A stretch of 64,000 nt of DNA from Dehalococcoidia bacterium (GCA_030610655.1 JAUWRG010000001.1:175-64174); one strand, 5' to 3'; counted from the stretch's first letter, positions 1 through 54,346 are shown. Made by a program: numbers and translations. Notes: a model not told the origin generated them from the letters alone.

Positions 1-1
1 T

Positions 2-3000: not shown

Positions 3001-3292
3001 GGGGCAACGTTATGTGCTTCGGGAATTACGTGTCATGTTCAGTACGACCGAAGATGAGAATCTGAAGGCCCAAATTAACATTTTGGAGAAAGCATTCCGA
3101 GGGCCAGTGACCATGGCGGTTAATAAAGAGCTGAACAGGAGCCGACGAAATGGAATCATGGGGCAGAACCTGTTTGAAGTATTAAGGGACATTTATTCCC
3201 AACACAACATGCGGGAATGGTTGGACCGAAGGAACTTGCATACTGAGGAGCAGCCCATATCAAGGATTATTTGCAGCGAGTCCTTTAGTTAA
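2..3292 (+). CDS. PLD-family (HKD) nuclease domain fused to an SNF2/SWI2-family helicase; the 5' end lies outside the window
   Basis: The frame is open from position 2. There is an HxKxxxxD motif (GRLHAKAYIFDY), a DEAH-type motif II (LILIDESHNF), a helicase C-terminal domain and a Q..GR..R motif VI (QRFGRIDRIG). The ORF track gives 1015 aa from an internal Met. Confidence 0.75.
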   Translation, partial: DNINRILSSTEAARFAVGYFFLSGLTSIADKLKGVKELRLLIGNTTNRETLEQLAEGYRRLELVKDAAEAQAYPKRAETRQMANETAENIRSSMELMDQTDEGETLVKEMVRMIEEKRLKVKVYTKGRLHAKAYIFDYGMLFDSDGKPVERHEKGIAIVGSSNLTLSGVTHNTELNVVVQGNDNHAELVRWFDDLWKEAQDFDEILMQEMQQSWAVIPVRPYDIYMKTLYSLVKDRIEGGDDKDILWDDEITRDLADFQKVAVRQAFQMIRDYGGVFISDVVGLGKSYIGAAVIKHLERTDRVKPLIICPASLVDMWERYNELYELNARVLSMGYLHEDDDGTSDILLRDVIYRERDLILIDESHNFRYSDTQRYKVMQRFLSTGKRCCFLTATPRNKSAWDVYHQIKLFHQDDKTDLPIDPPDLRQYFRLIEKGEKKLPDLLANILIRRTRNHILRWYGFDSVTHQPVDPSRFREYLDGHRRAYVLVGGRHQFFPKRELETIEYSIEETYQGLYHEIRGYLGKSQKGQPIKPPVNELTYARYGLWNYVVKSKQRQEPYTNLQHAGANLRGLIRVLLFKRFESSVYAFRETIRRLLTTHERFLEALLQGIVPAGDAAQDILYEPNQAEEQDLVDALRQASGRYKAEDFDMDRLQEHIEHDVQLLRKILQLVEPITSEYDDKLQTLKRWLGKMPLKDGKRLVFTQYADTARYLFDNLNPGGKSDDIEVICSGDKSKARVVGRFAPKANPDYHFASGESEITTLFATDVLAEGLNLQDCDKIVNYDLHWSPVRLIQRFGRIDRIGSDYDVIYGYNFLPETGIERNLGLKQKLHNRIQEIHDTIGEDSAILDHTEQLNEEAMYAIYEKKGGQLSLFEDEEDEFVDLNEAEEILRQLKGEKPEEYERISNLRDGIRTAKSSKSKGLYVFCQAGNYQQLFHLDEAGNIITRDIPRILGTIKCGPALEGQKLPEGYNTAVMRVKRQFSEEFKHRQAEREHTLSLSQGQRYVLRELRVMFSTTEDENLKAQINILEKAFRGPVTMAVNKELNRSRRNGIMGQNLFEVLRDIYSQHNMREWLDRRNLHTEEQPISRIICSESFS

Positions 3293-3469
3293 GTTCTCGC
3301 AAATCGCCAATTTTTCAGAACCTATTTGCTGGACTTTCTATAGCCTGTAGTCAGGCTCTCCGAAATCGAATTGATATCCAACAAAGTAGCGATTTGTGTC
3401 CTTCCTGCCGCGACGATACTTGGCAGACCGTCAGCATGATACCATCCCTGTCGCCCTCCCCTTTAATAT

Positions 3470-10499: not shown

Positions 10500-10737
10500 T
10501 TTGAAAACCTCCCTCCTTCAAATATTGGCTCCTTTAGCCTTTTTTGTAATGATATACTCCGCTTGAGTCCTTGATATTATAGCATATCTCCTTTCAGCTT
10601 GCATAAGGCCGCTTAGTTCTCCGTAGAAATCCGACACTCATCCTCCTTCCTGAGTGGTGTGTTCATTCTTAATCCCATGTGGGGTCGGTGGTAATGATAA
10701 CGGCTCAGACCACGGATGAACCTCGCCATGATGCTTC

Positions 10738-12201
10738 CTACCCTTTAACCACACCGATAGGCCTTGCTTTAGCCACTCTACGCGATATCCCCGCTTCATG
10801 AGTTATTTCCACCACTTGGGCGACATCTTTGTAGGCCTCCGATGCTTCCTCAGCGAGCGAGGACATGCTACCCGTCTTGACCGTTATACCTTTTTCAGCG
10901 AGCCGCCTGGCAACGTCGATGCCCCTCAGGCTTCTCTTCGCTGCGGAGCGGCTCTGCACCCTTCCTGCGCCATGACACGTAGAGCCAAAGGTTTCCGCCA
11001 CCGCCTTTTCGGTGCCAACCAAAACATACGAATAGCGACCCATATCACCGGGAATGAGCACAGGCTGCCCGATCTCAGCATATGCGCGAGGCACATCGGG
11101 GTGCCCTGCGGGGAAAGCTCTCGTAGCCCCTTTGCGATGGATACAAAGAGAGGTCAGCTTCCCGCCTACCTCGTACTCTTCAATCTTGGCGATATTGTGG
11201 GTCACATCGTAGACCATCTCCAGGCCCAATTCTTCGCGGCTTGCACCAAACACATTGACAAAAGACTCCCTGGCCCAATGAGCGATGCACTGGCGGTTGG
11301 CCCAAGCATAGTTGGCGGCGCAGGCCATGGCAGCAAAATAAGCTTGCCCCTCAGGAGACTTCACCGGGGCACAGGCAAGCTGGCGGTCGGGAAGACTGAT
11401 CCCGTATTTCTGCACCGCTGTCCCCATAGTCACTAAATGATCAGTGCAAACCTGGTGACCCAACCCCCGTGACCCGGTGTGGATCAGCAGAAGCACCTGC
11501 CCCACCCTTTCTATGCCCATGACGGAAGCGATAGCAGGCTCATAGATCTCCTCTACCACCTCCACCTCTATAAAGTGGTTCCCAGCGCCCAGCGTTCCCA
11601 ATTGGGGAGCACCCCGCTGCTTCGCCTTGGCGCTTACCTGTTCGGGGTCAGCACCCTCCATGCTGCCATTCTCCTCAGTAACCTCCAGATCCCTCGTCTC
11701 CCCATACCCCTTCTCCACCGCCCATCTGGCACCTTTCAGAAGAACCTTATCCACTTCCTGCTGACTCAGCCTCAACTTACCTTTAGACCCTACCCCCGAG
11801 GGAACATTGCTATAAAGAGCATCGATCAGCTTCTCGATTCTAGGCCTGACTTCCTCTTCAGTGAGGTTGGTACGCAGCAACCTCACCCCGCAATTGATAT
11901 CGAAGCCAACACCCCCAGGGGAGATCACACCATCCTCAACCCTGGTGGCGGCAACGCCCCCGATAGGGAAACCATAGCCCCAGTGGATATCGGGCATTGC
12001 CATAGACCGTGAAACGATCCCGGGAAGGAAAGCCACATTAGCTACCTGCTCTAGTGCCTGCTCCTCTCGAATGTGGGACAGCATGCTTTCATCGGCGTAG
12101 ATAAGCCCAGGTACTCTCATGCCTGCTTTATAGCTCTTCGGGATCTCCCACCGATAATCGTCTATTTTATTTAACATTCCCTCCCTCCGCATTTTCGTCA
12201 C
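10738..12201 (-). CDS. rtcB: RNA-splicing ligase RtcB
   Basis: 487 aa with RtcB metal/GTP-site motifs (GAGNHF, HTGSRGLGHQ, STCHGAGR). Confidence 0.9.
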   Translation of the reverse strand: MTKMRREGMLNKIDDYRWEIPKSYKAGMRVPGLIYADESMLSHIREEQALEQVANVAFLPGIVSRSMAMPDIHWGYGFPIGGVAATRVEDGVISPGGVGFDINCGVRLLRTNLTEEEVRPRIEKLIDALYSNVPSGVGSKGKLRLSQQEVDKVLLKGARWAVEKGYGETRDLEVTEENGSMEGADPEQVSAKAKQRGAPQLGTLGAGNHFIEVEVVEEIYEPAIASVMGIERVGQVLLLIHTGSRGLGHQVCTDHLVTMGTAVQKYGISLPDRQLACAPVKSPEGQAYFAAMACAANYAWANRQCIAHWARESFVNVFGASREELGLEMVYDVTHNIAKIEEYEVGGKLTSLCIHRKGATRAFPAGHPDVPRAYAEIGQPVLIPGDMGRYSYVLVGTEKAVAETFGSTCHGAGRVQSRSAAKRSLRGIDVARRLAEKGITVKTGSMSSLAEEASEAYKDVAQVVEITHEAGISRRVAKARPIGVVKG

Positions 12202-12204
12202 CCC

Positions 12205-12621
12205 CTAAATATCAAAGAGTACCTGAACCCTGTAGCCATCCCTCTCCTCAACCTTGAGCATGTGATAGGTGGTTGCCTTGACCGCTATCTTTATCTTGTG
12301 GCGCTCTGGATCGATCCTTTCCCCAAAGCATCTTGCCCTGAGCCTTGTCTCACTGAGTTCATCGATTTCAAATCTGTTAAGAAGCACATTCTCCACCTCG
12401 AAGAGGTAAATCAACTCGTTGAGCCATGCCACCAGAAGGTCCTCCCGGTTCTCCGCAGTGACCTCGGCCTCACAGCACAGGACATCAGCCACATTCTCAA
12501 TATCGACCATCAGGCTGAAAAGGGCGTATGCAGCATTGGCAAAGGCCTCCCTAAGGTTTGCCCCGTAGGCAGCAATACCAATGTCAGCCGTATGGTCGAT
12601 AACCTCGAACCTCTTCTCCAT
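12205..12621 (-). CDS. archease (RtcB activator)
   Basis: 138 aa; N-terminal FEVIDHTADIGI archease signature; immediately downstream of rtcB. Confidence 0.85.
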   Translation of the reverse strand: MEKRFEVIDHTADIGIAAYGANLREAFANAAYALFSLMVDIENVADVLCCEAEVTAENREDLLVAWLNELIYLFEVENVLLNRFEIDELSETRLRARCFGERIDPERHKIKIAVKATTYHMLKVEERDGYRVQVLFDI

Positions 12622-12671
12622 ATGTAGCGAATATTATACTAGAATGCCAACCCAAACTAAAGAGAATTGCC

Positions 12672-12700
12672 TTGACAACCCAGTGCCTCTCTCCGATAAT
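12672..12700 (+). promoter_or_regulatory. candidate sigma70-type promoter for the PhoU-like/pit operon
   Basis: TTGACA (12672-12677), a 17-nt spacer, GATAAT (12695-12700); an AGGAGG RBS lies 6 nt before the GTG at 12728. Confidence 0.5.
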
Positions 12701-12727
12701 CTAGTTTGATATAGTAGGAGGTAGCAC

Positions 12728-13357
12728 GTGGCTAGATTCTCCCTTTTACCCAAGAATGAGAGGTTCTTTGACCTTTTCGAGGAAAGCGCCCGCAATTTCG
12801 TGAGGGCAGCCGACCTCCTGAAAGAGCTTATGGATAGATGCGAGGACGTGGAGGAAATGGTAAGGCAGATTACGGAATTGGAGCACCATGGGGACAACAT
12901 CACTCATCGTATAATGGCGGAATTACATGGCACCTTTGTCACTCCCATCGACCGTGAGGACATCGCCCAACTTGCCCAACGTATGGACGATGTGATGGAC
13001 TTCATCGACGCAGCCGCGAGGCGTATGATGCTCTATGATATTACCAAACCTACGGAGAGGGCAAAGGAGATGGCCGACATCTTGGTCAGGGTGACCTCTG
13101 AGACGAGCAAAGCAATACCCCGATTGCGCCGCCGCCGCGAGCTGAGCCACATGAGAGAGCACTGCATCGAGATAAACCGGCTGGAGAACGAGGCTGACGA
13201 TGTGAGGCGCTCCGCCCTGGCCGAGCTCTTCCGCGATCGGGTGGAACTTGCTGAGGTGATCAAGTGGCGGGAGATCTATGAACACATGGAGGACGCCGTC
13301 GACAGCTGCGAGGATATCGCCGATATCCTCGAAGGGGTAATGATCAAGCGTGCCTGA
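12728..13357 (+). CDS. PhoU-like DUF47 family protein (pit accessory protein)
   Basis: 209 aa helical protein; its end overlaps the pitA start (13350) by 8 bp, the classic DUF47-PiT pairing. Confidence 0.75.
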   Translation: MARFSLLPKNERFFDLFEESARNFVRAADLLKELMDRCEDVEEMVRQITELEHHGDNITHRIMAELHGTFVTPIDREDIAQLAQRMDDVMDFIDAAARRMMLYDITKPTERAKEMADILVRVTSETSKAIPRLRRRRELSHMREHCIEINRLENEADDVRRSALAELFRDRVELAEVIKWREIYEHMEDAVDSCEDIADILEGVMIKRA

Positions 13358-28132: not shown

Positions 28133-28384
28133 ATGCCTAAGAAAGTGATACAGGTTCCTATCGAGCAAGAGTTGCTACACGCTCTTGATTTATTATCAAA
28201 GAAGCGCCGTCAATCTCGATCAGAACTTATTCGAGAAGCCTGCCAACGATATCTAAGACAAATAGAATCTGAGCAGCTAGATGAGGTCTATAAAGAGGGA
28301 TATAGAAGGCTACCCGAGGAGTCATCTCTGGGGCAGGGGCAGGTGAGTCTAGCGACTCAGATTCTTCCTCAGGAGTCTTGGTAA
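28133..28384 (+). CDS. ribbon-helix-helix family antitoxin (MazE/CopG-like)
   Basis: 83 aa; RHH-type N-terminus (KKVIQVPIEQELLHALDLLSKKRRQSRSELIREA); stop/start TAAATG junction with the downstream toxin gene. Confidence 0.65.
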   Translation: MPKKVIQVPIEQELLHALDLLSKKRRQSRSELIREACQRYLRQIESEQLDEVYKEGYRRLPEESSLGQGQVSLATQILPQESW

Positions 28385-28699
28385 ATGCATCGTGGTGAGG
28401 CATGGTGGGCAAATTTGCCTCCTCCTATTGATAGACGACCGGTGCTTTTGCTTTCCAGAGAAAGTGCTTACCAAGTGAGAACCTCCATTACTGTAGCTGT
28501 TATTACTCGCACCATTAGAGACATCCCCGTAGAGGTACCACTAGGGCTAGAGGATGGTATGCCTAATCAGTGTGTGGTGAATCTTGATGATATCTTAACT
28601 ATACCAAAAGCTTTGCTTAGTGAGCGAATCACCGTTTTATCTGACGCCAAGATGGCTCAAGTTATTAAGGCGATTGCCTTTGCTTTAGACCTAGGTTAG
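28385..28699 (+). CDS. MazF/PemK-family mRNA interferase toxin
   Basis: 104 aa; the RGEAWWANLPPPIDRRPVLLLSRES pattern is typical of the PemK/MazF fold. Confidence 0.65.
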   Translation: MHRGEAWWANLPPPIDRRPVLLLSRESAYQVRTSITVAVITRTIRDIPVEVPLGLEDGMPNQCVVNLDDILTIPKALLSERITVLSDAKMAQVIKAIAFALDLG

Positions 28700-30116: not shown

Positions 30117-30677
30117 ATGATCAGCACTGGTGAGCTAAAGAAGGGGATAACCATCGAGCTGGACGGTGAGCTTTACCAAATAATCGACTGGCAACATATC
30201 AAGGTAGGGCGAGGCAGCGCTCAGGTCAGGCTCAAGCTCCGCGATATTCGAGCAGGGCACACCATCGAGCGCACCTTCCAGGCAGGCGAGAAGTTTCCTC
30301 GAGCCAGATTGGACCGCAACACGGTGCAATTCCTTTACAACGATGGCGACCTATACTACTTCATGGACTCGGAAAGCTTCGAACAGTCCACGCTCAGTGG
30401 TAAGCAGGTCGGCGATGCCATCAACTACCTCAAGGAAGGTATGTCTCTAGACATACTTACCTACAAGGATGAACCGATAAACCTGGAGCTTCCCAACTCT
30501 GTGGAGCTTGAGGTTGTGGAAACCGACCCTGGCTTCAGAGGTAATACAGCAACTGCGGCGAACAAGCCAGCCAAGCTGGAAACAGGAATCACCATTCAGG
30601 TCCCTCTCTTCGTAGACAAGGGAGACATCGTCCGTGTTGATACTCGCACTGGCGCATACCTTGAAAGGGCAGGCTAG
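30117..30677 (+). CDS. efp: translation elongation factor P
   Basis: 186-aa EF-P with the KPGKGxA-loop equivalent (IKVGRGSAQVRLKLRD). An ATG at 30117 is preceded by a GAGGG RBS; the ORF track's 29997 start is an unlikely N-terminal extension. Confidence 0.9.
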   Translation: MISTGELKKGITIELDGELYQIIDWQHIKVGRGSAQVRLKLRDIRAGHTIERTFQAGEKFPRARLDRNTVQFLYNDGDLYYFMDSESFEQSTLSGKQVGDAINYLKEGMSLDILTYKDEPINLELPNSVELEVVETDPGFRGNTATAANKPAKLETGITIQVPLFVDKGDIVRVDTRTGAYLERAG

Positions 30678-30697
30678 ATGCAGGTATATTCTGTTAT
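30675..30697. repeat. left copy of a 22-bp direct repeat flanking the inserted island (efp stop + ancestral xseA start)
   Basis: TAGATGCAGGTATATTCTGTTA versus the right copy TAGATGCAGCTATATTCTGTTA at 36646-36667; one mismatch. Confidence 0.8.
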
Positions 30698-30736
30698 GAC
30701 GAAATGGCGGCCTCAAAAATTGGAGGCTAATTTACA

Positions 30737-33361
30737 ATGGCCTTGCATAGCATACTAAAATCAAAAGTTGCTGAATGGGAAAAATCTAATTATACCTCAG
30801 ATTATCCCGTTATTTCTGAGATTTTCAATTACAATCAAAATCCTGAAACTCAGAACTTGCCCTACTTACGAAAAGCCCAGTTTGAAGCCCTTGAAACTTA
30901 CTGGTATTTAAGACTTGTGGAGAAAACCCCTCACATTTTTGAACTCCATAATAGATTGTATCCTAATCCTTTAGATTTTCTGAAAGTCCTCGGAATACCC
31001 ACCGAGAATCAGGAAATTTTAGGACTGGCTTTAACAGGTGGCACAGACAGGATAATTGACCAGATAAGGACAAATGATGAGTTTGTAAAGAGGCATGGAC
31101 TTGAGACTGTAAGGGAAACTTTGACCCTTGAATATCCCAGTTATATCCTAGCTTTGGCAATGGGAGCAGGTAAGACCATCTTGATCGGCACAATTATCGC
31201 TACTGAATTTGCAATGGCTCTTGAATATCCAGAGAATAACTTCGTCAAAAATGCCCTAGTATTTGCGCCGGGTAAGACAATATTAGGAGCATTAAAGGAG
31301 TTATCGGATGTTCCCTATGAAAAAATATTGCCTGAAAGGCTTTATAAGCAGTTCATAACTACCACAAAATTTACCTATACCCGCGATGGCGAAAAAGACA
31401 TCCCGATAATCAAAGGCTCAAGTTTTAATATCGTAGTAACCAATACCGAAAAGATTAGAATACAAAAACACTCAATAACCAAATCCCTAATTAGAGATTT
31501 ATTTGTTGACCCATCCCGGGAAGATGAGGTAAAGGAGGCGATAGCCAATCAGAGATTGCAAACAATTGCCTCGCTTCCAAATCTTGCTATCTTTTCTGAT
31601 GAAGCACACCATACCTATGGACTGGCACTCGGTGAAGAACTGAAGAGAGTGAGACAAACAGTTAATTATCTGTCAGAAAAGACAAATGTTTTAGTTGTGA
31701 TAAACACCACGGGAACCCCATATTATAAAAGGCAGATCCTTAAAGATGTTATTTATTGGTATGGGCTATCACAAGGAATAAAAGATGGAATATTGAAAGA
31801 AGTCCGGGGCAATATTGTATCTTATCCAGAAGTAACCGACAAAGATTTCCTAAAAGATATTATCGCCGATTTCTTCAAGAATTATAAAGATGTAAAAATC
31901 TATGACGGCAGTCCTTCTAAACTGGCAATATATTTCCCCAAAATAGAGGATTTAAAGAATGCCAAACCAGTTGTTGAGAAAAACTTAATAGAACTCGGTT
32001 TAGACCCTTCTGTTATTTTAGAAGTCCATAATGAGTCAAAACAAGAGGTTAAGGATTTATTTGATAACCGAATAAATGACCCTCACCTACCTTATCGCAT
32101 ATTTCTTCTTGTTAATAAAGGGACTGAGGGATGGAACTGCTTATCCCTCTTTTCTACTGCCTTAGCACGCAAACTGACAGCAAGTAATAACTTTTGCCTT
32201 CAAGCCACCTCCCGCTGCCTCAGGCAAACTCCCGGCAATATACACAAGGCAAAAATATACCTTTCCAAAGATAATGTCGGAATTTTAGACGCCCAACTTA
32301 AAGAGACCTATGGTGAAACTCTTGAAGATTTAAATAGAACTTCACAAGATATGAGAGAGGATAGACTAATTTTGAGGAAAGTAGAAATACCACCTGTTTT
32401 ACTCAAAAAGAAGATTCGAAAAGTTCTGCCTAAAGAAGTGCTGTCAGATATTAGTCAAATGGAGTTTAAGAAGATTGAAGGAGAAAAAGAGAAGTTTAGA
32501 AAGACTATCCATAGCCTTGATGACATTCCTCAGAGGAAGGGAGTCTTAATTTTTGTAAGAGAAGAGGAGATAGAAATTATTGAAGATTTCGTGGATAGTT
32601 ATACCTTTGCTGTGGAACTATCAAGCCTTTATCGCCTACCCCTTATGTTAATATACGACAAATTGAAGGAGTTGTATCCCGAAGGCGAGATTCCTGAAAG
32701 CGATGCCATTGAACTTAAAAGGCAAATAGAAGAGCAAGTGCGAAACTACGAAATAAAAGAGGAAGAGGTAGAATTTGCCCTTGCTCTCATAAGACCCGAG
32801 GGCTTCAATAAGGAGGAAAAAGACGGCAAGAGTATATATGTAACCGAGATAGTCTATCATAAAGACAAGGAGAAATACCTATTAAAGTGGGATGAGTTTA
32901 AAGATAAATTTAAGAGAGACTTCGGCTTCCACTATAATCCCTATAAATTCGATTCTTCTCCTGAGAAGGAATTTTTTACCTGGCTTCTTGAAAACTTGAA
33001 CGAAGACCCGGCAGATGTTGAAGACATCTATTATACCGGTGGTATGGATGACCCCAATAAGACAGACTTTCTCTTTGAATATAAGGCTAAAGATGGCAGG
33101 TATCATAACTATGCACCTGATTTCCTGATAAGAAGAAAAAGTGGGAAAATAATAATTGTGGAGGTAAAAGCAGAGCGCTTCAAAGATGAAGAGAAGGAAA
33201 AGGAGATGAGAAGGATTGAAGGGCTAAACCCTGATAGATTAAAGTATGAAATTGTAGAGACCAAAGGTGAACAGCTAGCTTTTGAGGGTTTAAATAAAGT
33301 TAGAGAAGCAATCTATGAGTATGGCAGTAAAGGGGTAAATAAGAATGCTTACTCAGTCTGA
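30737..33361 (+). CDS. Type III restriction Res-like SF2 helicase with a C-terminal PD-(D/E)xK nuclease motif
   Basis: Motif I AMGAGKT, motif II FSDEAHH, motif III NTTGTP, motif VI QATSRCLRQ, and C-terminal PDFLIRRK...IIIVEVKAE. AT-rich codon usage unlike the flanking genes. Confidence 0.7.
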   Translation: MALHSILKSKVAEWEKSNYTSDYPVISEIFNYNQNPETQNLPYLRKAQFEALETYWYLRLVEKTPHIFELHNRLYPNPLDFLKVLGIPTENQEILGLALTGGTDRIIDQIRTNDEFVKRHGLETVRETLTLEYPSYILALAMGAGKTILIGTIIATEFAMALEYPENNFVKNALVFAPGKTILGALKELSDVPYEKILPERLYKQFITTTKFTYTRDGEKDIPIIKGSSFNIVVTNTEKIRIQKHSITKSLIRDLFVDPSREDEVKEAIANQRLQTIASLPNLAIFSDEAHHTYGLALGEELKRVRQTVNYLSEKTNVLVVINTTGTPYYKRQILKDVIYWYGLSQGIKDGILKEVRGNIVSYPEVTDKDFLKDIIADFFKNYKDVKIYDGSPSKLAIYFPKIEDLKNAKPVVEKNLIELGLDPSVILEVHNESKQEVKDLFDNRINDPHLPYRIFLLVNKGTEGWNCLSLFSTALARKLTASNNFCLQATSRCLRQTPGNIHKAKIYLSKDNVGILDAQLKETYGETLEDLNRTSQDMREDRLILRKVEIPPVLLKKKIRKVLPKEVLSDISQMEFKKIEGEKEKFRKTIHSLDDIPQRKGVLIFVREEEIEIIEDFVDSYTFAVELSSLYRLPLMLIYDKLKELYPEGEIPESDAIELKRQIEEQVRNYEIKEEEVEFALALIRPEGFNKEEKDGKSIYVTEIVYHKDKEKYLLKWDEFKDKFKRDFGFHYNPYKFDSSPEKEFFTWLLENLNEDPADVEDIYYTGGMDDPNKTDFLFEYKAKDGRYHNYAPDFLIRRKSGKIIIVEVKAERFKDEEKEKEMRRIEGLNPDRLKYEIVETKGEQLAFEGLNKVREAIYEYGSKGVNKNAYSV

Positions 33362-33818
33362 GGCAGATGCTTTAATCGATATGCGAAAGAAACTCGCCAA
33401 AAAAGAAGTGTATAATTTCCCTCCGGCTGGCGAAATATTAACTATTCCTATTATCTCTGTGGACGAAAGGGAATCTTTCTTGATAGATATAAACAGAGGA
33501 AGCATCAGGCTTACCAAATGCACTTATCAGGAACGCTACCAGAGGATAATTACCCTCGTGCGTCTTGATATCGATGGACCTCCACATCCTAATCCAGAGG
33601 TGGTGAATATTCCATTTCCTCACCTTGAACCCTATAACGGACAGACGATACCTTGTCCCCATTTACACCTCTATGTGGAAGGATTTATGGATAAATGGGC
33701 AATTCCATCTCCGTCTGAGAAATTTCCAAGAACAACCGACCTCGTTGCAATTCTAGCCGATTTCTTCCGCTACTGTAACGTTGTTGAACTACCGGCAATA
33801 CAAAGGGGGATGTCTTGA
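33345..33818 (+). CDS. hypothetical protein (157 aa), translationally coupled inside the res-mod-like operon
   Basis: Overlaps the upstream stop by 17 bp and the downstream start by 4 bp. I recognise no motif. Confidence 0.5.
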   Translation: MLTQSEADALIDMRKKLAKKEVYNFPPAGEILTIPIISVDERESFLIDINRGSIRLTKCTYQERYQRIITLVRLDIDGPPHPNPEVVNIPFPHLEPYNGQTIPCPHLHLYVEGFMDKWAIPSPSEKFPRTTDLVAILADFFRYCNVVELPAIQRGMS

Positions 33819-34582
33819 TTTTAAAAGACTGTCAAGATTTGGTTAATGCTTATATTGAATGGCTTCAACAGAGAATTAACGTAGAAGATATAAAAGGAGT
33901 TTGTGAGATTACCACCCCCTTTGTTGATAGACACAATGACCAGCTACAGATATATGTCAAGCCTTCTAATAATAGGCTCATTCTTACAGATGATGGCTAT
34001 ACCATTAAAGACTTAAAAATAAGTGGATTTGAAATTACAACTGAAAAAAGACGACAAATACTCTATTCTATATTAAATGGTTTTGCTGTCCAACTTCATG
34101 GAGATGAGCTTACTGTGGAAGCAACGCCGGATAACTTTGCCCAAAAAAAGCATAATCTTATTCAGACTATGCTTGCGGTAAATGACCTTTGGACTATGAC
34201 TGAACCAATGGTAGCAAGCCTTTTTAGAGAAGATGTAGAAAGATACTTGCGCGAGCATAAAATCCGATTTACTCCCTCAATCAAGTTTGCTGGAAAGAGC
34301 GGTTTAGACCATTCTTTTGATTTTGTAATTCCGGCTTCGCCTGTAAAACCAGAAAGAATACTCAATGCCATTAGCAATCCGACACGGCAAAATATCTCCT
34401 TGCTAATCTTTTCTTGGACTGAGATAACAGAAGTGAGAGCACCCGATTCTACTGCCTATGGAGTTTTAAATGATACAGAGAAACAGGTAAGTCCTGATCT
34501 TATTGATGCACTCCAGCGGTATTATATTAGACCTATACAATGGAGCCGTAGAGCTGAGTATGTTGAGGAACTCGCATCATAA
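33815..34582 (+). CDS. hypothetical protein (255 aa) resembling DUF1828/DUF1829-type proteins
   Basis: The motif EITTPFVDRHNDQLQIYV...LILTDDGYTIKDL matches my recollection of the DUF1828 N-terminal signature. Not verified. Confidence 0.45.
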   Translation: MILKDCQDLVNAYIEWLQQRINVEDIKGVCEITTPFVDRHNDQLQIYVKPSNNRLILTDDGYTIKDLKISGFEITTEKRRQILYSILNGFAVQLHGDELTVEATPDNFAQKKHNLIQTMLAVNDLWTMTEPMVASLFREDVERYLREHKIRFTPSIKFAGKSGLDHSFDFVIPASPVKPERILNAISNPTRQNISLLIFSWTEITEVRAPDSTAYGVLNDTEKQVSPDLIDALQRYYIRPIQWSRRAEYVEELAS

Positions 34583-34593
34583 GGGATAAGGCT

Positions 34594-36603
34594 ATGGCTG
34601 AGAATAAAATCAAGATTACCCCCGCTAAAGGGCGACCAATGCTTCACTGGGTGGGCAAAAAGCCTTCGGATTATGTAAAAGGCTTCCCTACTCAACTTGT
34701 TGAAGTTTTTGACCCGTTGAATAATGGGCAGAGAATTGAAACGCCGACTTACGATGAACTAAAAGACAACTGGCAAAACTTACTCTTTCACGGTGATAAC
34801 AAAGATGTTTTAGCCACACTTCTTGAATTAGGATTTAGGGGAAAGATTGATTTAATTTATATTGACCCGCCATTTAAAAGCGGCGCTGATTATGTAAGAA
34901 AGATTGAACTGCGGGGATTAAAGAATTTAGGGCGAATAGAAGAAGATGAGGCGTCACTACTTCAGCAGACAATGTATTTTGATATTTGGAACAATGACAG
35001 CTATTTGCAGTTTATGTATCATAGATTGATACTTTTGAAGGAGTTATTAAGTGATGCAGGAAGCATTTGTCTGCATTGCGATTATAGACAAAATAGTTAT
35101 TTGAGATTGATAATGGATGAAATTTTTGGTGCGGATAATTTCAGAAATGAAATTATTGTGCGAAGAGGGGTCAAAAGCCTTCAAGCCCAGTTTGATATGA
35201 TCGATTCCTTATCCTCTGGTAATGACACTATCTTGGCGTATGTAAAAGATCCCAATACAAAGTTTAAAAAGTTAGAAATTGAACTTACAGAATCGCGGCA
35301 AGGGACTTGGAATAACCATTGGAGAGGCACTGATCGCCCTACGATGCGATATGAATTATTTGGGATAACACCAACACACGGCCAATGGCGATGGAGTAAA
35401 GAACGCTCAATGAACGCTATTGAGAATCATAAGGCATTTCTCAAGGTGGCAGACAAGTATTCAAGCATTGACGAGTATTATTTGGAGAAGAAAGCAGCCG
35501 GAATTGAACTAGATTTCTTGCGTCTTAACAATAAAGGGAAACCAGAACATTATGTGCCGACTACAGACATTAGACTTTCAAGTACGCTATGGACTGACAT
35601 CTCTGCATATGATAGTGGCTCTTCCTTTCAGACACAAAAAAGTGAGGAATTACTTGAAAGAATCATTGATTGGTTAACCAACCCCGGCGAACTCGTCCTT
35701 GACTGTTTCATCGGCTCGGGCACAACTGCTGCTGTTGCTCAGAAACTTGGCCGGCGATGGATTGGCTGCGATATAAACAAAGGGGCAATTCAGACGACAA
35801 GCAAGAGGTTACAAAAGGTAATTCTTGAACAGATAAAATCCCCCTCTAATCCCCCTTTATTAAAGGGGGAAGTAGGGGGATTTGCTGTTTACAAGGTCAA
35901 TGACTACGATTTGCAACTTTTAAGAACCGAGGCGATTGAACTTGCCGTCCAGCATATCGGTATTCAGAAGATAAGAACCGATGCATTCTTTGACGGATAC
36001 CTGGGGAAAAACCTAGTTAAAGTTATTGACTTCAACCATCCATTAACTCTTTTGGATTTACAACTTCTTCAAGACGAACTCAAGAAAAGACCAGATGAAG
36101 ATAGGGATATTACCATCGTCTGCCTTGGCAAAGAATTAGCCGTCGACCCCGAAATTGAAAAATGGAATAAAAAACACCCAGTAAATAAGATTAAAGTAAT
36201 TGAATTAAAAACAGATAAAAAATATGGCAGTTTCTTAATCCATAAACCAGCGGAGGCAAAGATAGAGATTCTTCCCCTTCACTTCGTTCAGGGTCAGAAT
36301 GACAGATTGGCAATAATAGAGATTCAAGATTTTATCTCACCTACCATAATTGAGCGGCTTAATATTGATAATACTCTTTTCAAAGTAAAAATCCCCGACT
36401 TTAGAAGTATGATAGACACAGTTTTGATTGACACAAATTACGATGGTAAAACCTTCCATATAGTTCATTCAGATGTTCCAAAGAGGAAAGATGACTTAGT
36501 CAAAGGAAAATATGAAATCGAGCTTCCAAAATCAAAAACAAAAGTCGCAGTAAAAATAATTGATATGCTTGGAGAAGAGATTATAAATGTTTTCGAGGTA
36601 TAA
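34594..36603 (+). CDS. beta-class N6-adenine/N4-cytosine DNA methyltransferase, Type III Mod-like
   Basis: Motif IV IDLIYIDPPFKSG precedes motif I VLDCFIGSGTTAAVA (beta circular order); N-terminal LLFHGDNKDVLATL; 669 aa. Confidence 0.8.
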   Translation: MAENKIKITPAKGRPMLHWVGKKPSDYVKGFPTQLVEVFDPLNNGQRIETPTYDELKDNWQNLLFHGDNKDVLATLLELGFRGKIDLIYIDPPFKSGADYVRKIELRGLKNLGRIEEDEASLLQQTMYFDIWNNDSYLQFMYHRLILLKELLSDAGSICLHCDYRQNSYLRLIMDEIFGADNFRNEIIVRRGVKSLQAQFDMIDSLSSGNDTILAYVKDPNTKFKKLEIELTESRQGTWNNHWRGTDRPTMRYELFGITPTHGQWRWSKERSMNAIENHKAFLKVADKYSSIDEYYLEKKAAGIELDFLRLNNKGKPEHYVPTTDIRLSSTLWTDISAYDSGSSFQTQKSEELLERIIDWLTNPGELVLDCFIGSGTTAAVAQKLGRRWIGCDINKGAIQTTSKRLQKVILEQIKSPSNPPLLKGEVGGFAVYKVNDYDLQLLRTEAIELAVQHIGIQKIRTDAFFDGYLGKNLVKVIDFNHPLTLLDLQLLQDELKKRPDEDRDITIVCLGKELAVDPEIEKWNKKHPVNKIKVIELKTDKKYGSFLIHKPAEAKIEILPLHFVQGQNDRLAIIEIQDFISPTIIERLNIDNTLFKVKIPDFRSMIDTVLIDTNYDGKTFHIVHSDVPKRKDDLVKGKYEIELPKSKTKVAVKIIDMLGEEIINVFEV

Positions 36604-36645
36604 TAAAGATGAAACCGCCACTTCATGTGGCACGGTGTAAAAGTA

Positions 36646-36667
36646 TAGATGCAGCTATATTCTGTTA
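36646..36667. repeat. right copy of the 22-bp direct repeat; contains the functional xseA start codon
   Basis: See 30675-30697. Confidence 0.8.
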
Positions 36668-37812
36668 GCCATGTAATACGCTATCTCAGGGAGGTTCTCG
36701 AGGCTGACAGCCTTCTCACCGACATTTGGGTCAGCGGCGAGGTCTCCAACCTGAGGGAGTCGGCGGCGGGGCATCTATATTTCACCCTCAAGGATGAGAC
36801 AAGCCAGTTACGCTGTGTATTCTTCAGGCCAAAACTAGCCATCACCCTGGAAAACGGGGCAGCGGTGATAACACATGGCCACATCTCTATCTATGAAGTC
36901 TCCGGCGCCCTCCAGCTTTATGTTGACCTAGTGCAGCTTGAAGGGGTGGGCATACTCCACCTTGAGTTTGAGCGCCTCAAGGCAAAACTGGAGGAGGAGG
37001 GACTATTCGAACCTGTCCGCAAAAGATCGTTGCCCCTGTTCCCCAAGCGAATCGGCGTGGTTACTTCGCCCACAGGCGCTGTATTTTATGACATCGCCAG
37101 TATAATTGGCAGACGCTACCCTCTGGTCGAGCTGGTTCTCTCTCCAACGCTTGTGCAGGGCGACGGTGCCGTAGATGGCATCGTTCAAGCTTTGCAGGCT
37201 CTCAATGATATGGAGGACATCGATGTGGTGATTCTGGCTCGCGGTGGTGGCTCACTTGAAGACCTGTGGGCCTTCAATGATGAAAAGGTTGCCCGCGCCA
37301 TTTATGCCAGTAAAGCGCCAGTGATCAGCGGGGTGGGGCACGATACCGACTTCACCATCGCCGATTTCGTTGCCGACGTGCGTGCCCCCACACCATCAGC
37401 GGCGGCCGAGCTCGCTGTGCCCGACTATGCAGAACTGGAAGCGCACATTCAATCGCTTACAAAGACGCTATTGATAGACGTCACAAGGTACCTTGACCGC
37501 TATCGCCAGCGCACCGACGAACTCACCAGAGCAGCGTCAGTGTATCTCGGTAATGCCCTCGCCATAAGCAGGGAGAAACTGCGGGGTCGAGAGCTTGAAC
37601 TCGCCTCGCTGAGTCCATTGGCTACCTTGAGTCGTGGCTACGCCCTGGTGCAGCATTCGGCCACCGGCGAGGTCGTTTCTCATATAGACCAGGTTCAGCG
37701 CGGCGATGCCATCGATATCAAAGTAAGCGATGGCCAGTTTAAGGGCAGGGTCACCGGATCGAAGAAGGGGCTCCAGGGATGGATGAACGGCTTTCCTTCG
37801 AAGAAGCACTAA
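36649..37812 (+). CDS. xseA: exodeoxyribonuclease VII large subunit
   Basis: OB-fold N-terminus (VSGEVSNLRESAAGHLYFTLKD) and catalytic core. Confidence 0.9.
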   Translation: MQLYSVSHVIRYLREVLEADSLLTDIWVSGEVSNLRESAAGHLYFTLKDETSQLRCVFFRPKLAITLENGAAVITHGHISIYEVSGALQLYVDLVQLEGVGILHLEFERLKAKLEEEGLFEPVRKRSLPLFPKRIGVVTSPTGAVFYDIASIIGRRYPLVELVLSPTLVQGDGAVDGIVQALQALNDMEDIDVVILARGGGSLEDLWAFNDEKVARAIYASKAPVISGVGHDTDFTIADFVADVRAPTPSAAAELAVPDYAELEAHIQSLTKTLLIDVTRYLDRYRQRTDELTRAASVYLGNALAISREKLRGRELELASLSPLATLSRGYALVQHSATGEVVSHIDQVQRGDAIDIKVSDGQFKGRVTGSKKGLQGWMNGFPSKKH

Positions 37813-49702: not shown

Positions 49703-50269
49703 TTATTCACTCATTTTCATAGATAGATACGATTAGATTGGCTCTTCCTCTAAGCACAGTCAATTTTAGCCTAGGTAGCGATGGTTTAGCAAGCCACTGC
49801 TTCTCGTTGGTCTTGCTAAAATAGATGAGCGGCATCTTCGCCGTATTGAAAGGCACTCTTCTATAGGAGGGAACCTTGATGTAAAGCAAAAAGTGGACTC
49901 TAGGAAGTAACTTCTTTGACGGCATCCACTACTTGCTTCAATACATCTTTGAAGAGCCTGCCAGCTAGGTCTCCGGTCGTCTCTGGCTCTACTATTGAGC
50001 CTAGCCTTGGCACAATAAGCCAGGGTAATCTCCTTCGCCACAGTCAAAGCATCGTCTGCCATAATTTTTACCTCCCTTTGGCCATTATACGTATTATGAG
50101 GACAATAAGCTGGTAGACAGGCTGTCTAAAAACCTCATTCCGCGTAGCGTCGTGACTCCTGTCACGACGAAGAATTCGTCCTTCAGCAGAAGGACGCTAC
50201 CCTTTTGGGACGGCCTGTAGATATGATATTTGCTTGATTTAGGACTGAAATTGTGTAGTGACCACCAGC

Positions 50270-50503
50270 TTAAGCATAGACTTTTATATTGTGCTGCTCA
50301 AGAAGTTTAGCTATTTCTGACTCGTATGGCAAACCGGTTATGTCTACGCCGCTACCTACGTAAAGTAGTTCAACGCCTATAACAGTTCCATCTTCTGCAT
50401 AGTCAATAAATCTTGTTTCATCAAGCTCCTTAGAATATGAGTAAGGTAACTTATTAATGAGGATGTAAGCACAGTCAGCATCGCGGTCATACTGGAATTC
50501 CAT
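50270..50503 (-). CDS. DUF2283-family small protein (putative antitoxin-like partner)
   Basis: 77 aa; pairs with the upstream DUF4258-like gene. Confidence 0.5.
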   Translation of the reverse strand: MEFQYDRDADCAYILINKLPYSYSKELDETRFIDYAEDGTVIGVELLYVGSGVDITGLPYESEIAKLLEQHNIKVYA

Positions 50504-50518
50504 AGAGCCTCCTTTAGT

Positions 50519-50767
50519 TTAGTCGAGAACGATAGCCGTTATGATTCTTAATGGGCTGGTATTCTTACGAACGACTACTCTAAGTCTCTTTCCGTTTTTC
50601 AAGTAGCCGACAAAACAATCATTACCTTCTTTATCCTTGTACGCTATATCATAGGAATCAAGAACGTTTTCGACTTCTGCCCTTGTTATCGCACGTTGCT
50701 TCATTCGATTCCGAGCATGATGTTGAAATTTGTAAGCTTCCCCGCCCGGTGTCTCATACACTTTCAT
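50519..50767 (-). CDS. DUF4258-family small protein (putative toxin-like)
   Basis: 82 aa; basic N-terminus (HHARNRMKQRAITRAEVENVL). Confidence 0.5.
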   Translation of the reverse strand: MKVYETPGGEAYKFQHHARNRMKQRAITRAEVENVLDSYDIAYKDKEGNDCFVGYLKNGKRLRVVVRKNTSPLRIITAIVLD

Positions 50768-50932
50768 TTTCTACCCTCCCAGTAAGTTTTGTCAATTCCG
50801 CCAACTAACTGTTACCAGCTGGTTTTTGGTTCCTTTTAGTACGTTATGCTACATCTAACTAGAAGTCAAGCTCTTAACTGCTTGACAAAGCTGCCGCTGT
50901 TATGGTAATATATAGCATGGAGGAGGTGAACT

Positions 50933-51691
50933 ATGCTAAACCAGTCCGAAAAAAACAAGAAACGGGAGGTGTCGCGGTATTCCTATCCATATTATGATTT
51001 AGAAAGTGCCATTCAAGTTACTAAGATACTCTATGACCAGGCAGGTGGTAAAACCTCATTCGCACAATTAGCTTCCTACCTTGGGCATAAGGATGAATCC
51101 AGCGGAACGTTCATTGCTAAGATTTGGGCAGCTAAGTTATTGGGGCTTGTCCAAGTTCAGACTCAAACTGTATCCACCACAGAATTAGGCGAACGATTGA
51201 CAACACTTCAGCCCGGTTTACAGAGGGATAGGCGGCTTGCGGATGCCTTTCTGAATGTACCGCTGTTTCGCGAGGTCTATAAGAGATTTGAAAATTCAAC
51301 ACTCCCTTCAACACGAGAAGGACTTTTGAACGTTCTACAAAGTACTTTTGGTGTTCCTTCCAAACGTGCGCCAGTGGCTTTGAAGGTGTTGTTGGCTTCA
51401 GCGGAGCAAGCTAATTTTAAGCGCGCTGACCCCAATCGGCTGATTCACCCTGTGCCCGCGGGGTTGATGGAAAGAGAAGCTTTAGCGAAAGCTGAAGCTG
51501 AGCAAGAAGAACCAGTATCTAATGCTCCTCAGTTGGAAACACCACTGAGGAAGGTGCATCCAGCTATAAGTGGCTTTCTCCAAGAGCTCCCATCTAAGGG
51601 AGAGCGATGGACTACAAGCGACCAGCAGAGATGGCTCGATGCTTTTACCGCCATGATTAAGGCTCTTTACCCAAGTGAAGACAGCGATTAG
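50933..51691 (+). CDS. hypothetical protein
   Basis: 252-aa ORF preceded by a GGAGGAGG RBS; no recognised motif. Confidence 0.4.
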   Translation: MLNQSEKNKKREVSRYSYPYYDLESAIQVTKILYDQAGGKTSFAQLASYLGHKDESSGTFIAKIWAAKLLGLVQVQTQTVSTTELGERLTTLQPGLQRDRRLADAFLNVPLFREVYKRFENSTLPSTREGLLNVLQSTFGVPSKRAPVALKVLLASAEQANFKRADPNRLIHPVPAGLMEREALAKAEAEQEEPVSNAPQLETPLRKVHPAISGFLQELPSKGERWTTSDQQRWLDAFTAMIKALYPSEDSD

Positions 51692-51895
51692 ACAACGAAG
51701 ACTATGGATAAAGACGAAATTCTCGAAAGGGGGCTCTCCCTGAAGAGGGGCTGGGGACGCCCCCACGCCACCTATCATTGCGAGGATTGTCACGAGCGTA
51801 AGCGAGAGAACTCGCCCAAGCAATTAGAGACTTCCATTTGCCATTCCGACGAGGATTAGCGATCAAGTAAACTCGGATGGAAAGGGGAACCATGT

Positions 51896-52008
51896 GTCAT
51901 TCTGAAGGAGCAAAGCAAGGGAGGAATTTGGTTTAGATTCTTCCCCTTCACGGAGCCTGTCCTGTCCTTCTGCGGAAGGATATCGAAGGGTTCGGGGTCA
52001 GAATGACG
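51896..52008. repeat. terminal-inverted-repeat element R6 with perfect 10-bp inverted ends
   Basis: GTCATTCTGA...TCAGAATGAC with internal CCTTCTGCGGAAGG hairpin; 113 bp. Confidence 0.8.
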
Positions 52009-52127
52009 CTGCGAAGCAGGTATAATGGGGAGGAAGTGATGCATCATCAATCACATGAACGAGTACAGGGGAGCACACGATAATATAAGAGAGGCATACC
52101 TCGGAATTTGATGATTGCGCTAGCGGC

Positions 52128-52955
52128 TCATCCCCAATTTAGCGCCCTGATCGCTCCCGTACCAGAATCTATGGTGGTCTTCTTGCGCCACACGACCTCG
52201 TGTGGCAGATATTCCTCAAATGCCTTCCTCAGGATCCATTTCCCCCATACCTTACCCATTTCCCGTCTCACCTTATACTCAACAGGTACTTCCCAAGCGA
52301 ATTCGCTCACCTCCGAGGTGAGGTAAGGGGCGCTCAACTCCATACCCAATGCACCGGCCAACATGTAGGGGTATCTGAAATCATAAGCCTGAAACACCCT
52401 TGACGATAACTCCCGTTCCAGATCTCTGGCGAAGAGTTCTTCGCCACTAGAGGTGATAAGGTCGAAAAAACCGCTGATGGAGTCATAGCCGACAAATAGC
52501 TCATCAGCGCCGTCGCCGGTATATAGAGAACTCACAAATCTCCTAGCAAACATCATTGCAATATAGACTGGCGCAAGAGTAGTGGGGCCTGCCACCTCAC
52601 TATAGCCTTCGACTATGCTTTCCTTAATATGCATAGGGACGCCAGCCTCATATTCACTGTTGTTCAAGATGCTTGTCGCCTCCAGGGCCGCATCCACAAG
52701 CTCCTGTTCGGTGAAAAAGCGAACTGTGTGGTCCAATTCAAGGAATTGAGCCACCATCCTGGCATATTTGAGGTCTTCATCAACGCCTTCCATGGTTACG
52801 GTGAAGGCCTTCAGGCCGGGCACATGCTTTTTGGCAATCAAGGCGATAATGCTGGTATCCAGCCCCCCTGAGAGCAATACCCCTTCAGCTCTTTCATTGC
52901 TTATAGCTTCATCCAGTAGAACCCTCAGCCAGTAACTTGCCTCACCTATATCCAT
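52128..52955 (-). CDS. asparagine-synthetase-like PP-loop ATP pyrophosphatase domain protein (no glutaminase domain)
   Basis: SGGLDTS PP-loop and AsnB C-domain-like sequence; 275 aa. Confidence 0.6.
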   Translation of the reverse strand: MDIGEASYWLRVLLDEAISNERAEGVLLSGGLDTSIIALIAKKHVPGLKAFTVTMEGVDEDLKYARMVAQFLELDHTVRFFTEQELVDAALEATSILNNSEYEAGVPMHIKESIVEGYSEVAGPTTLAPVYIAMMFARRFVSSLYTGDGADELFVGYDSISGFFDLITSSGEELFARDLERELSSRVFQAYDFRYPYMLAGALGMELSAPYLTSEVSEFAWEVPVEYKVRREMGKVWGKWILRKAFEEYLPHEVVWRKKTTIDSGTGAIRALNWG

Positions 52956-53140
52956 AATAAATCACCAGTTAGCTACTTTGCCCAGGGCTTCTCTGTCTGT
53001 AGGACGGATATCTAGATTTTGCGCTATAAGTGCCGCGCCAGTATTACCTAGGGCGACGAAAACTTTCTCAACTTTGGGGCTTTGGGCCATCTTCTATACC
53101 AAGGTGTGTTCCCTGCCCCGTCCACCAATAACTAGTATCT

Positions 53141-54346
53141 TCACAGTTCACCTCTGTAATCCTTATTACTTAGGTTGTTTTTCTTCCGAAGCATTTCCCT
53201 TAACAAGTCCCGTGCCACCCTGTCTTCCATTTTTGTCTTGCTTAGAAGATCTTCTGACTCATGCTTTGGCAGCATCTCTGCTATAAATCTCATTAGTTCC
53301 ACTGAAGGGTAGAAATATTGCATTCCGTAGTGCACACAGCCCATATTAAGCTTAAGGAGCTTGAATATCTGCGCTACGAGTTTTCTTCGTTCGTTATCCG
53401 TTAGTATAGTTGTGTTGAGCCAAAACTCGCCGTTGTTGGTTACAACTTGAACGGAAAGCGGGTCAGGGAACCATAGGTGGAGATTCAAGTATAAGCGAAA
53501 AGGGAAATCATTAACCGCTTGGCACAATTCCCTCAATTCCTTAAGGAGATCATCGCTTTCCCCAGTACTCATATCGGGGAAATAAGGCGGGCGCATATGC
53601 CTCCCTTCATCTCTTCGTTTTTTAATTATCTCCTCGATTGTCTCCTTGGGGCACCCATCCAACTCCATTTGCTGCTTCGCCTCTTCCTCATCTTTAGCGA
53701 TATAAGTCTCAAGCTGGGTAATATCCCGCTCGAGGTTTTCATCGTATTTGTGAATTGCATTCACCTCTAATTGCCTTTCCGTTGCCTCCCCAACGTGTTT
53801 CTCAAGTATCCCGGCGTGTCCCCTTTTCACTCGTTCTTCTTCCTTTAGTCGCCTTTCCATTTCCACCTTTTGCAAGCCAAGTGTATGATCGTAAATCTTC
53901 TCAATCATCCTATCAGCAACCTCTACTGCCGATTCCCAATTTCCCGGTTTATATTTTTTGATTATCCTCCTCGTTTTTCCTGTCGACGAATCATAAATCC
54001 TAATAAAGGACAGTTTTGTTGTAAAGAATCCGCCTGTTTTTAAATTATATGTAGTTTTTCCACCTGTCATATCCTCTATCGTTTGGATGTGTATCCCCAA
54101 CTTATAAAAAGATATACCTCTAAAGGTATCCCCACTAACTGGTGAGACGATTTCTCGAATGCTAAAACTTTTACTAATCACTTTCCCGATCATACTTGCC
54201 GTTTCGTCTATGTTCACAACTTTGCCTAGCAACTCTCCTTTCAACCGCCTCTTGCCTAGACTCATATGCTTCCTCCTTTGAGCAAAAGTTTTAACCTCAA
54301 AATCACTTACATTTGCGAGTTCATTTCCTGTTTGGCCTTTAAGCAC
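53141..54346 (-). CDS. hypothetical protein (401 aa)
   Basis: Long ORF overlapping the upstream gene by 40 bp; charged coiled-coil middle region; no recognised motif. Confidence 0.4.
   Translation of the reverse strand: MLKGQTGNELANVSDFEVKTFAQRRKHMSLGKRRLKGELLGKVVNIDETASMIGKVISKSFSIREIVSPVSGDTFRGISFYKLGIHIQTIEDMTGGKTTYNLKTGGFFTTKLSFIRIYDSSTGKTRRIIKKYKPGNWESAVEVADRMIEKIYDHTLGLQKVEMERRLKEEERVKRGHAGILEKHVGEATERQLEVNAIHKYDENLERDITQLETYIAKDEEEAKQQMELDGCPKETIEEIIKKRRDEGRHMRPPYFPDMSTGESDDLLKELRELCQAVNDFPFRLYLNLHLWFPDPLSVQVVTNNGEFWLNTTILTDNERRKLVAQIFKLLKLNMGCVHYGMQYFYPSVELMRFIAEMLPKHESEDLLSKTKMEDRVARDLLREMLRKKNNLSNKDYRGEL

Follow-up and report, generated by a model that had tools for sequence, protein, structure and literature searches.

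A probable composite defence locus in a Dehalococcoidia bacterium: a catalogued candidate cassette nested in a Type III-like restriction–modification pair

Organization of the locus

This study focused on four consecutive genes on the plus strand of a contig from a Dehalococcoidia bacterium (GCA_030610655.1, JAUWRG010000001.1:175-64174), of which the whole stretch of 64,000 nucleotides (nt) is referred to here as the window. From the left, these are res (30737-33361), which specifies an 874 amino acid (aa) protein with a superfamily 2 (SF2) helicase and a C-terminal PD-(D/E)xK nuclease, a predicted Type III-like restriction subunit that belongs to a lineage of its own; PDC-M24A (33345-33818), encoding a beta-rich protein of 157 aa that belongs to Pfam family DUF6978; PDC-M24B (33815-34582), which has a TTG start and encodes a protein of 255 aa with DUF1828 and DUF1829 domains; and mod (34594-36603), specifying a beta-class amino-methyltransferase of 669 aa. 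The products of the middle genes are abbreviated below to M24A and M24B. The reading frames are tightly packed, with overlaps of 17 base pairs (bp) between res and PDC-M24A and 4 bp between PDC-M24A and PDC-M24B, and a spacer of 11 bp between PDC-M24B and mod; the four genes and both overlaps are exactly as an earlier note on this DNA had described. That note viewed the four genes as one undescribed defence system related to restriction–modification (RM). The defence connection is upheld in the present study, and an ordinary account can replace the apparently exotic four-gene system, namely an RM pair that carries a nested, already catalogued candidate cassette.

Conservation was assessed in two sets of loci (numbered with the prefix L), one of 80 genome loci anchored on M24B and the other of 80 metagenome loci anchored on Res, with the four window proteins mapped onto each. 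Both sets represent the best 80 of several hundred matches, near-duplicates included, and the counts given are approximate and do not correspond to independent events. Open reading frames (ORFs) in these loci were called mechanically, and all functions were deduced from sequence and predicted structure.

The Res and Mod proteins

Every motif previously quoted for Res and Mod is present in their translations. In Res, SF2 motifs I, II, III and VI (AMGAGKT at aa 141, FSDEAHH at 286, NTTGTP at 323 and QATSRCLRQ at 489) span aa 141-497, and the C-terminal nuclease includes PDFLI (aa 794) and IVEVK (aa 807), containing D795, E809 and K811. Homologues of Res number ~3,000 in all. The Walker-A lysine (K146), D288, E289, D795 and E809 are found in all 74 homologues compared, K811 in 71 of the 74, and motifs III and VI are invariant across them. 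With a Pfam ResIII match (E = 2e-6) added to these motifs and nuclease residues, the claim that the first gene specifies a helicase-nuclease with the layout of a Type III Res stands, and its C-terminus is weakly TnsA_N-like.

Links between Res and a solved or canonical Type III Res were sought by sequence and rejected. Neither phmmer nor a family profile found a match in the PDB, and hhalign comparison with the EcoP1I Res of phage P1 was not significant (E = 0.1, probability 0.6%), with only a short nuclease motif aligning in a colinear position (Y-A-PDF...IVEVK of Res on Y-S-PDF...IIETK of EcoP1I). The score against PADLOC model REase_III was just 19 bits over 90 aa, that against NCBIfam BPTD_3080 was 63 bits (cut-off 800), and Pfam RE_endonuc (PF19778), which matches EcoP1I Res (4e-25), did not match the window protein. 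By these comparisons, Res is a lineage apart from the Res of EcoP1I and EcoP15I.

Mod carries motif IV (DPPF, aa 91) ahead of motif I (FIGSGTT, aa 372), with the target recognition domain (TRD) between them. It matches Pfam N6_N4_Mtase (E = 4e-41), its best PADLOC model is MTase_III (E = 2.7e-59), and among solved structures it is closest to EcoP15I Mod (4zcf_A, E = 2.9e-19), with the H. pylori Mod (6k0w) second, in agreement with the original description of a Mod-like, beta-class enzyme. Residues D91, P92 and P93 of motif IV, and F372, G374 and G376 of motif I, are each present in 51 of 51 homologues. Conservation is high (0.8-0.95) at aa 1-175 and 350-669, which takes in a conserved C-terminal domain, and falls to 0.06-0.23 at aa 226-325, the hypervariable TRD, as would be expected of the specificity subunit of a diversifying RM system. 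The DPPF motif of amino-methyltransferases is predictive of N6-adenine methylation, and since Mod is a beta-class enzyme with DPPF, its predicted product is N6-methyladenine (m6A). Given the invariant catalytic motifs and the hypervariable TRD, the pair looks functional as an RM system.

Several features are shared with the Type III enzymes EcoP1I and EcoP15I: there are two subunits, Mod has the order motif IV, TRD, motif I, Res combines an N-terminal SF2 helicase with a C-terminal PD-(D/E)xK nuclease, and Mod is homologous to characterised Type III Mods (EcoP15I, H. pylori). Unlike those enzymes, Res has no significant similarity to their restriction subunits and its nuclease is weakly TnsA_N-like instead of RE_endonuc. 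The gene order also differs: res comes first both in the window and in each of the 69 family loci examined, and mod comes first in phage P1. A mod-then-res order is typical of Type III systems without strictly defining them, and in a distant relative on an Enterococcus plasmid the methyltransferase gene comes before res. In a relative from Ideonella dechloratans (41.5% identity), res is followed directly, with no cargo, by a gene for a 'site-specific DNA-methyltransferase', and the two lie in a defence island flanked on one side by a Phd/RelE pair and on the other by an AAA-ATPase/DUF4276 pair with Mrr. Type III enzymes methylate one strand of an asymmetric site, need two inversely oriented, unmodified sites for cleavage, and require ATP (PMC12707154). 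The pair is best called a 'Type III-like' RM system, a label based on architecture and on Mod because Res is unlinkable by sequence to the EcoP1I and EcoP15I subunits, and it very probably works in a Type III-like manner.

It could be argued that Res and Mod have nothing to do with restriction, and instead represent, for example, an orphan-like epigenetic methyltransferase and an unrelated, TnsA-like helicase-nuclease of DNA repair or transposition. This would suit the weak TnsA_N likeness, the missing sequence link to EcoP1I Res, and the names given to Res relatives by the Prokaryotic Genome Annotation Pipeline (PGAP), which are 'TnsA endonuclease N-terminal domain-containing protein' or 'DEAD/DEAH box helicase'. 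It is extremely unlikely, however, given that 69 of the 80 loci of the Res set have mod downstream of res in the same orientation and that 9 of the other 11 contigs end within ~1 kb of res, so that the linkage holds in 69 of the 71 loci having enough downstream sequence. Moreover, transposase and TnsB/C genes are absent, Mod finds its closest counterparts among Type III Mods and has the hypervariable TRD that diversifying specificity predicts, the nuclease motif of Res is colinear with that of EcoP1I, and the Ideonella homologue sits among a toxin–antitoxin (TA) pair, the AAA-ATPase/DUF4276 pair and Mrr.

None of the four proteins matched the PADLOC models diagnostic of BREX (PglZ/BrxC), DISARM (DrmA/B), Hma (HmaA-C) or Type I systems (HsdS/HsdR). 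This bears out the earlier statement that the locus does not fit BREX, DISARM or Type I, and membership of Hma can likewise be ruled out.

The PDC-M24 cassette

The products of the two middle genes are, by full-length model matches, those of PDC-M24, a two-gene defence candidate already catalogued in PADLOC. M24A aligns over aa 1-155 to positions 1-143 of the 146 in PDC-M24A (PDLC04538, E = 7e-56) and also matches Pfam DUF6978 (E = 9e-42), while M24B aligns over aa 5-254 to positions 3-254 of the 255 in PDC-M24B (PDLC04539, E = 3.3e-100). The genes are adjacent and co-oriented, with A before B. PDC-M24 originated in the 'guilt-by-embedding' candidates of Payne et al. (2024; bioRxiv 10.1101/2024.01.29.577857), a set defined by embedding in BREX, DISARM and Type I systems. 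The window cassette resembles theirs in its model matches, in its gene order and in being nested within a defence system based on DNA modification, and differs in that its host is a Type III-like pair, a kind of host outside that survey. A literature search on PDC-M24, DUF6978 and DUF1828 found no functional study and no anti-phage assay of PDC-M24, and in the literature searched DUF1829 appeared only by way of HipAD/DS-6.

Predicted structures give some first hints about the cassette, pointing to a nuclease fold in M24B and to an M24A with no match among solved structures. The M24A model is confident and did not match any solved fold; its near-invariant residues are D75, H81-x-N83, H106-x-H108 and C144. 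The M24B model (pLDDT, the predicted local distance difference test score, 81.7) has two domains. In a fold search, the N-terminal domain was CesT/YbjN-like, with a conserved P-x-x-D-R-H-N-D (residues 35-42), and is followed by a long helix that leads to a restriction-endonuclease-like C-terminal domain of PD-(D/E)xK fold with D169 and E180-R181. Matches of M24B to the PDB by sequence were not meaningful, and the fold search alone was informative.

A connection to a validated system is provided by DUF1829. HipAD/DS-6 was validated as anti-phage in the DefensePredictor study, where its component DS-6B (DUF3037-DUF1829) was read as acting like an antitoxin to a HipA-like kinase (PMC13092281). 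DS-6B and M24B have DUF1829 in common, but in M24B this domain is fused to DUF1828 and not to DUF3037, the partner protein is a DUF6978 protein, and Pfam found neither a HipA-like kinase nor DUF3037 in the window. Two Nitrospirae metagenome-assembled genomes (MAGs; L021:3203-5638 and L022) have no M24A at the locus but encode an M24B homologue (55% identity) directly after genes for a HipA_2 kinase and a DUF3037 protein, an arrangement that, from its domains, is a split version of the HipAD/DS-6 architecture. Other partners of M24B homologues in the absence of M24A, likewise from conflict systems, are an upstream nSTAND1/HD-CE NTPase (L010) and an SDH protease (L020).

Such arrangements raise the question of whether M24A and M24B are a TA-like addiction module that would mainly stabilise the island by post-segregational killing rather than act against phage. 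An operon of two small genes with a 4-bp overlap would be in keeping with this, as would the antitoxin-like reading of DS-6B and the HipA_2 and DUF3037 neighbours in L021 and L022. We consider it improbable all the same, since both proteins retain enzyme-like, invariant polar clusters across 66-84 homologues, and the other cargo found at the same junction consists mostly of recognised defence genes. In addition, HipAD/DS-6 itself protects against phage, and TA-like logic and defence are therefore not exclusive.

Distribution of the two modules

Each pair of genes occurs mostly without the other, and in varied contexts, and for this reason Res/Mod and M24A/B are best regarded as separable, autonomous modules. 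In the M24B set, M24A is encoded directly upstream in 69 of 80 loci, and Res and Mod of the window type flank the cassette in a single case (L004, a WOR-3 MAG). The remaining 79 of 80 lack them, which, along with the catalogued status of the middle pair, speaks against one undescribed four-gene system. In the Res set, res and mod abut or overlap in 32 of the 69 linked loci and are separated by an insert in 37. The inserted genes are M24A/B in L083, L092, L115 and L148, to which can be added L111, where the contig ends after the cassette, and approximately 32 of the 69 loci contain other cargo. The idea of the four genes as a unit is not compatible with so many adjacent pairs and alternative inserts, and the synteny check that the earlier note had called for gave a mixed answer: the four-gene block does recur in a minority of loci (L004, L083, L092, L111, L115 and L148), but overall it is not conserved as a block. 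On these distributions, the RM family exists as many 'alleles', and the arrangement of four genes represents one of them.

In a neighbour-joining tree of M24B (no branch support calculated), cassettes nested in Res/Mod fall into two clades, with cassettes of other contexts between them, a pattern that may reflect repeated acquisition or recombination.

Genome neighbours of M24A/B include a DUF1156 methylase with DUF499 (Hma-like), Type I hsdM/S/R, MmeI/Eco57I-type enzymes, a C5 methylase and ResIII helicases. In the genomes L001-L003 (Bacillota, Desulfofundulus and Armatimonadota), M24A/B lie between a large DUF1156-type methyltransferase and an ORF of 1104 aa, with DUF499 detected in three of the neighbours downstream; judged from proteins that were checked in part, this organization resembles Hma.

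The classical precedent for a guard is PrrC, which is embedded in the EcoprrI Type I system. PDC-M24 might be a guard of this kind, tied to its RM-like host, sensing its inhibition by phage anti-restriction factors and triggering a nuclease or abortive response. The enrichment of the cassette beside DUF1156/DUF499, Type I hsdM/S/R, MmeI/Eco57I, ResIII and C5 methyltransferase genes fits well with such a role, as does the first definition of the family by embedding in BREX, DISARM and Type I systems, and the chaperone-like fold of the M24B N-terminal domain would be suitable for binding proteins. On the other hand, many copies are found beside plain housekeeping genes only (ribosomal protein L1, RF-1, purA), and a specific physical partner is disfavoured because the host RM types are structurally unrelated. 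A guard function is, on balance, doubtful, and a cassette independent of its host remains the preferred interpretation.

The res-mod junction and its cargo

Across the family, the junction has a simple form, in which the stop codon of res is followed after ~2 nt by the ATG of mod (e.g., L106) or by that of the first cargo gene, and the 5' end of mod is conserved at the nucleotide level regardless of the cargo. Insert clustering and annotation distinguished about 14 types of cargo at this point. Besides M24A/B, these include PDC-S32 (~300 aa, 7 loci), ThsB-TIR with SLATT, an Old/GajA-like ATPase-TOPRIM protein, a radical-SAM protein (PDC-M30A-like), a YhcG/DUF1016 PD-(D/E)xK protein, AAA_13 (PDC-S06), DUF3800, NYN and a nucleotidyltransferase. 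Four further families were without matches in Pfam, PADLOC or NCBIfam. The commonest is a pair of 427 and 355 aa, present in 8 loci (L090, L093, L097 at 10590-12921, L098, L113, L120, L123 and L143), and the others are a pair of 85 and 350 aa (L081:4746-6056 and L091), a protein of 237 aa (L086:2887-3600 and L101) and one of 329-335 aa (L128:3834-4823 and L129). The cargo genes are on the same strand as res and mod throughout, apart from two short ORFs that are probably spurious.

The means by which cargo is exchanged is probably homologous recombination through the conserved 3' end of res and 5' end of mod, which would be the simplest route. An attC-type, integron-like motif common to the cargo types was looked for at the junction and none was seen.

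The junction in the window departs from this pattern in one respect. The usual res stop codon, after '...YG-x-K', has been lost, and the frame continues for nine codons (YGSKGVNKNAYSV*; 33322-33361). The same loss is seen in L004, while other relatives have the stop, 2 nt and ATG. This stop loss accounts for the 17-bp overlap of res with PDC-M24A, which is a local and not a conserved feature, and which consequently provides no evidence of obligate translational coupling. The proposal that all four genes are obligately co-translated is not supported. In L088 (2790-3026), a PDC-M24 cassette between intact res and mod genes has decayed through an internal deletion of ~1 kb, which left the 5' end of M24A (~73 codons) and the final codons of M24B.

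These details bear directly on the possibility that the four genes form an integrated system, with M24A and M24B as accessory specificity or regulatory subunits required by a variant Type III enzyme. The compact arrangement of overlapping or adjacent ORFs on one strand lends itself to that interpretation, and an identical four-gene arrangement exists in L004, L083, L092, L111, L115 and L148. It is, nevertheless, very unlikely. In the 32 of 69 members in which res and mod are adjacent, all catalytic motifs are intact; 79 of 80 genome loci with M24B lack Res and Mod of the window type; around 13 unrelated types of cargo take the same position; the L088 cassette was lost with res and mod still intact; the hypervariable TRD of Mod already explains specificity; and the 17-bp overlap reflects a local loss of a stop codon. 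The situation is essentially one that the earlier note had itself named as counting against its proposal, a Type III system beside which a mobile insertion of two unrelated genes is found, with the difference that the Res lineage is not the canonical one of EcoP1I/EcoP15I.

Similar embedding is known from other systems, such as the Hma-embedded HEC systems and BrxU in BREX, where diverse, largely defence-related cargo lies in the same orientation between genes of a modification system. PDC-S32, PDC-S06, PDC-M30A-like, Old and NYN genes (the last as in HEC-09), known from HEC and PADLOC embedded genes, also occur as cargo in the present family. The difference lies in the host, here a Type III-like pair of genes that offers one exactly defined docking point, directly behind the stop codon of res.

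Boundaries of the genomic island

The four genes, and no others, make up an island between the housekeeping genes efp, which is preceded by pepP, and xseA (Pfam assignments). GC content is 0.35-0.44 over approximately 30700-36700, compared to 0.50-0.58 on both flanks, with a drop from ~0.50 to 0.37 at the left edge. This low-GC block is bracketed by two copies of a 22-bp direct repeat, TAGATGCAG[G/C]TATATTCTGTTA, that are identical at 21 of 22 positions. In the left copy (30675-30696, plus strand), the efp stop codon is joined to a repeat of the 19 nt that begin xseA, and the right copy (36646-36667, plus strand) contains the true start of xseA (ATG at 36649); they mark the left and right edges of the island. 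The 19-mer of the repeat is present at these two places and nowhere else in the window (0 expected from 100 shuffles). Since the true xseA start is in the right copy and the left copy trails the efp stop, the ancestral junction would have been efp-TAG-ATG-xseA, and the positions of the copies at the efp stop and the xseA start indicate that all four genes entered as a single insertion of ~5.95 kb in which the cassette had been nested beforehand. Both modules are, therefore, carried by one low-GC island of ~5.95 kb that was inserted between efp and xseA in one acquisition. No integrase gene was present within the island. An empty efp/xseA site was not found, the exact look-up of the EF-P sequence having returned one contig, which bears the same island.

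A proposed model of a composite locus

Taken together, the evidence favours, with a probability of about 0.8, a composite locus in which a Type III-like RM pair and the PDC-M24 cassette nested in it are autonomous defence modules that were acquired together. According to this model, Mod would recognise a short site by means of its hypervariable TRD and methylate it in host DNA, with m6A as the predicted modification, and Res, presumably in complex with Mod, would use ATP to communicate along unmodified DNA before cutting it. PDC-M24, placed exactly at the res-mod junction in the same orientation, is probably co-transcribed with res and mod. Most likely it would operate independently of them, providing a second layer of defence or abortive infection, in which M24B could be a nuclease-fold effector, or else a DNA-binding domain or regulator, under the control of its chaperone-like N-terminal domain, with M24A supplying an obligate partner activity. 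Such a two-component module, independent of Res/Mod, is put forward with low confidence. More generally, the res-mod junction serves as a docking site in this Res/Mod family for interchangeable defence cargo.

Some observations weigh against parts of this interpretation. Res has no sequence link to EcoP1I/EcoP15I Res in the phmmer, profile and hhalign comparisons described above. M24B lacks the canonical lysine of (D/E)xK, having E180-R181-I instead, and confidence in its model is low around residues 156-175, so that its nuclease activity is uncertain. Lastly, a minimum of six further loci, drawn from different phyla (those listed above), have the four genes arranged identically at this junction, and because of this some functional synergy between the modules is possible.

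A bolder version can be put forward in two parts, the first being that PDC-M24 is mechanistically new, with the D / H-x-N / H-x-H / C cluster of M24A forming a new enzyme or metal-binding fold that controls a nuclease-fold partner, and the second that its nesting in unrelated modification systems reflects a PrrC-like guard, firing when a phage disables the RM system of the host. It is speculative, and the two parts together are unlikely to be correct.

The phenomenon of embedded defence genes, previously known from Hma, BREX, DISARM and Type I systems, is extended here to a widespread Type III-like family of res-to-mod order, with the docking site of the cargo located precisely, directly after the res stop codon. 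The res-mod junction would then be a rich and unmined hotspot for 'guilt-by-embedding'. The unannotated cargo families would be good candidates for new defence genes, and by the same logic the commonest of them, the pair of 427 and 355 aa, can be considered an unannotated defence candidate.

Transcription signals and surroundings of the island

A scan for promoters and terminators, limited to consensus-level matches, detected a promoter-like site with 10 of 12 positions matching at 30661-30690, just 5' of res. No terminator-like site on the plus strand was detected after mod (36604-36648), where there is an imperfect palindrome without a T-run (36616-36632). As the insertion has parted xseA from efp, xseA may now be read through from the island.

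A type II TA pair (28133-28699) made up of RHH_1 and a PemK toxin (83 and 104 aa) lies ~2 kb upstream, in the interval from aroQ to pepP, and its annotation was taken from the identical contig L161. Elsewhere in the window, GC content also dips at 1-4000 and 50001-54000 (0.46-0.48, compared to ~0.52 in the remainder), and these could be further acquired segments.

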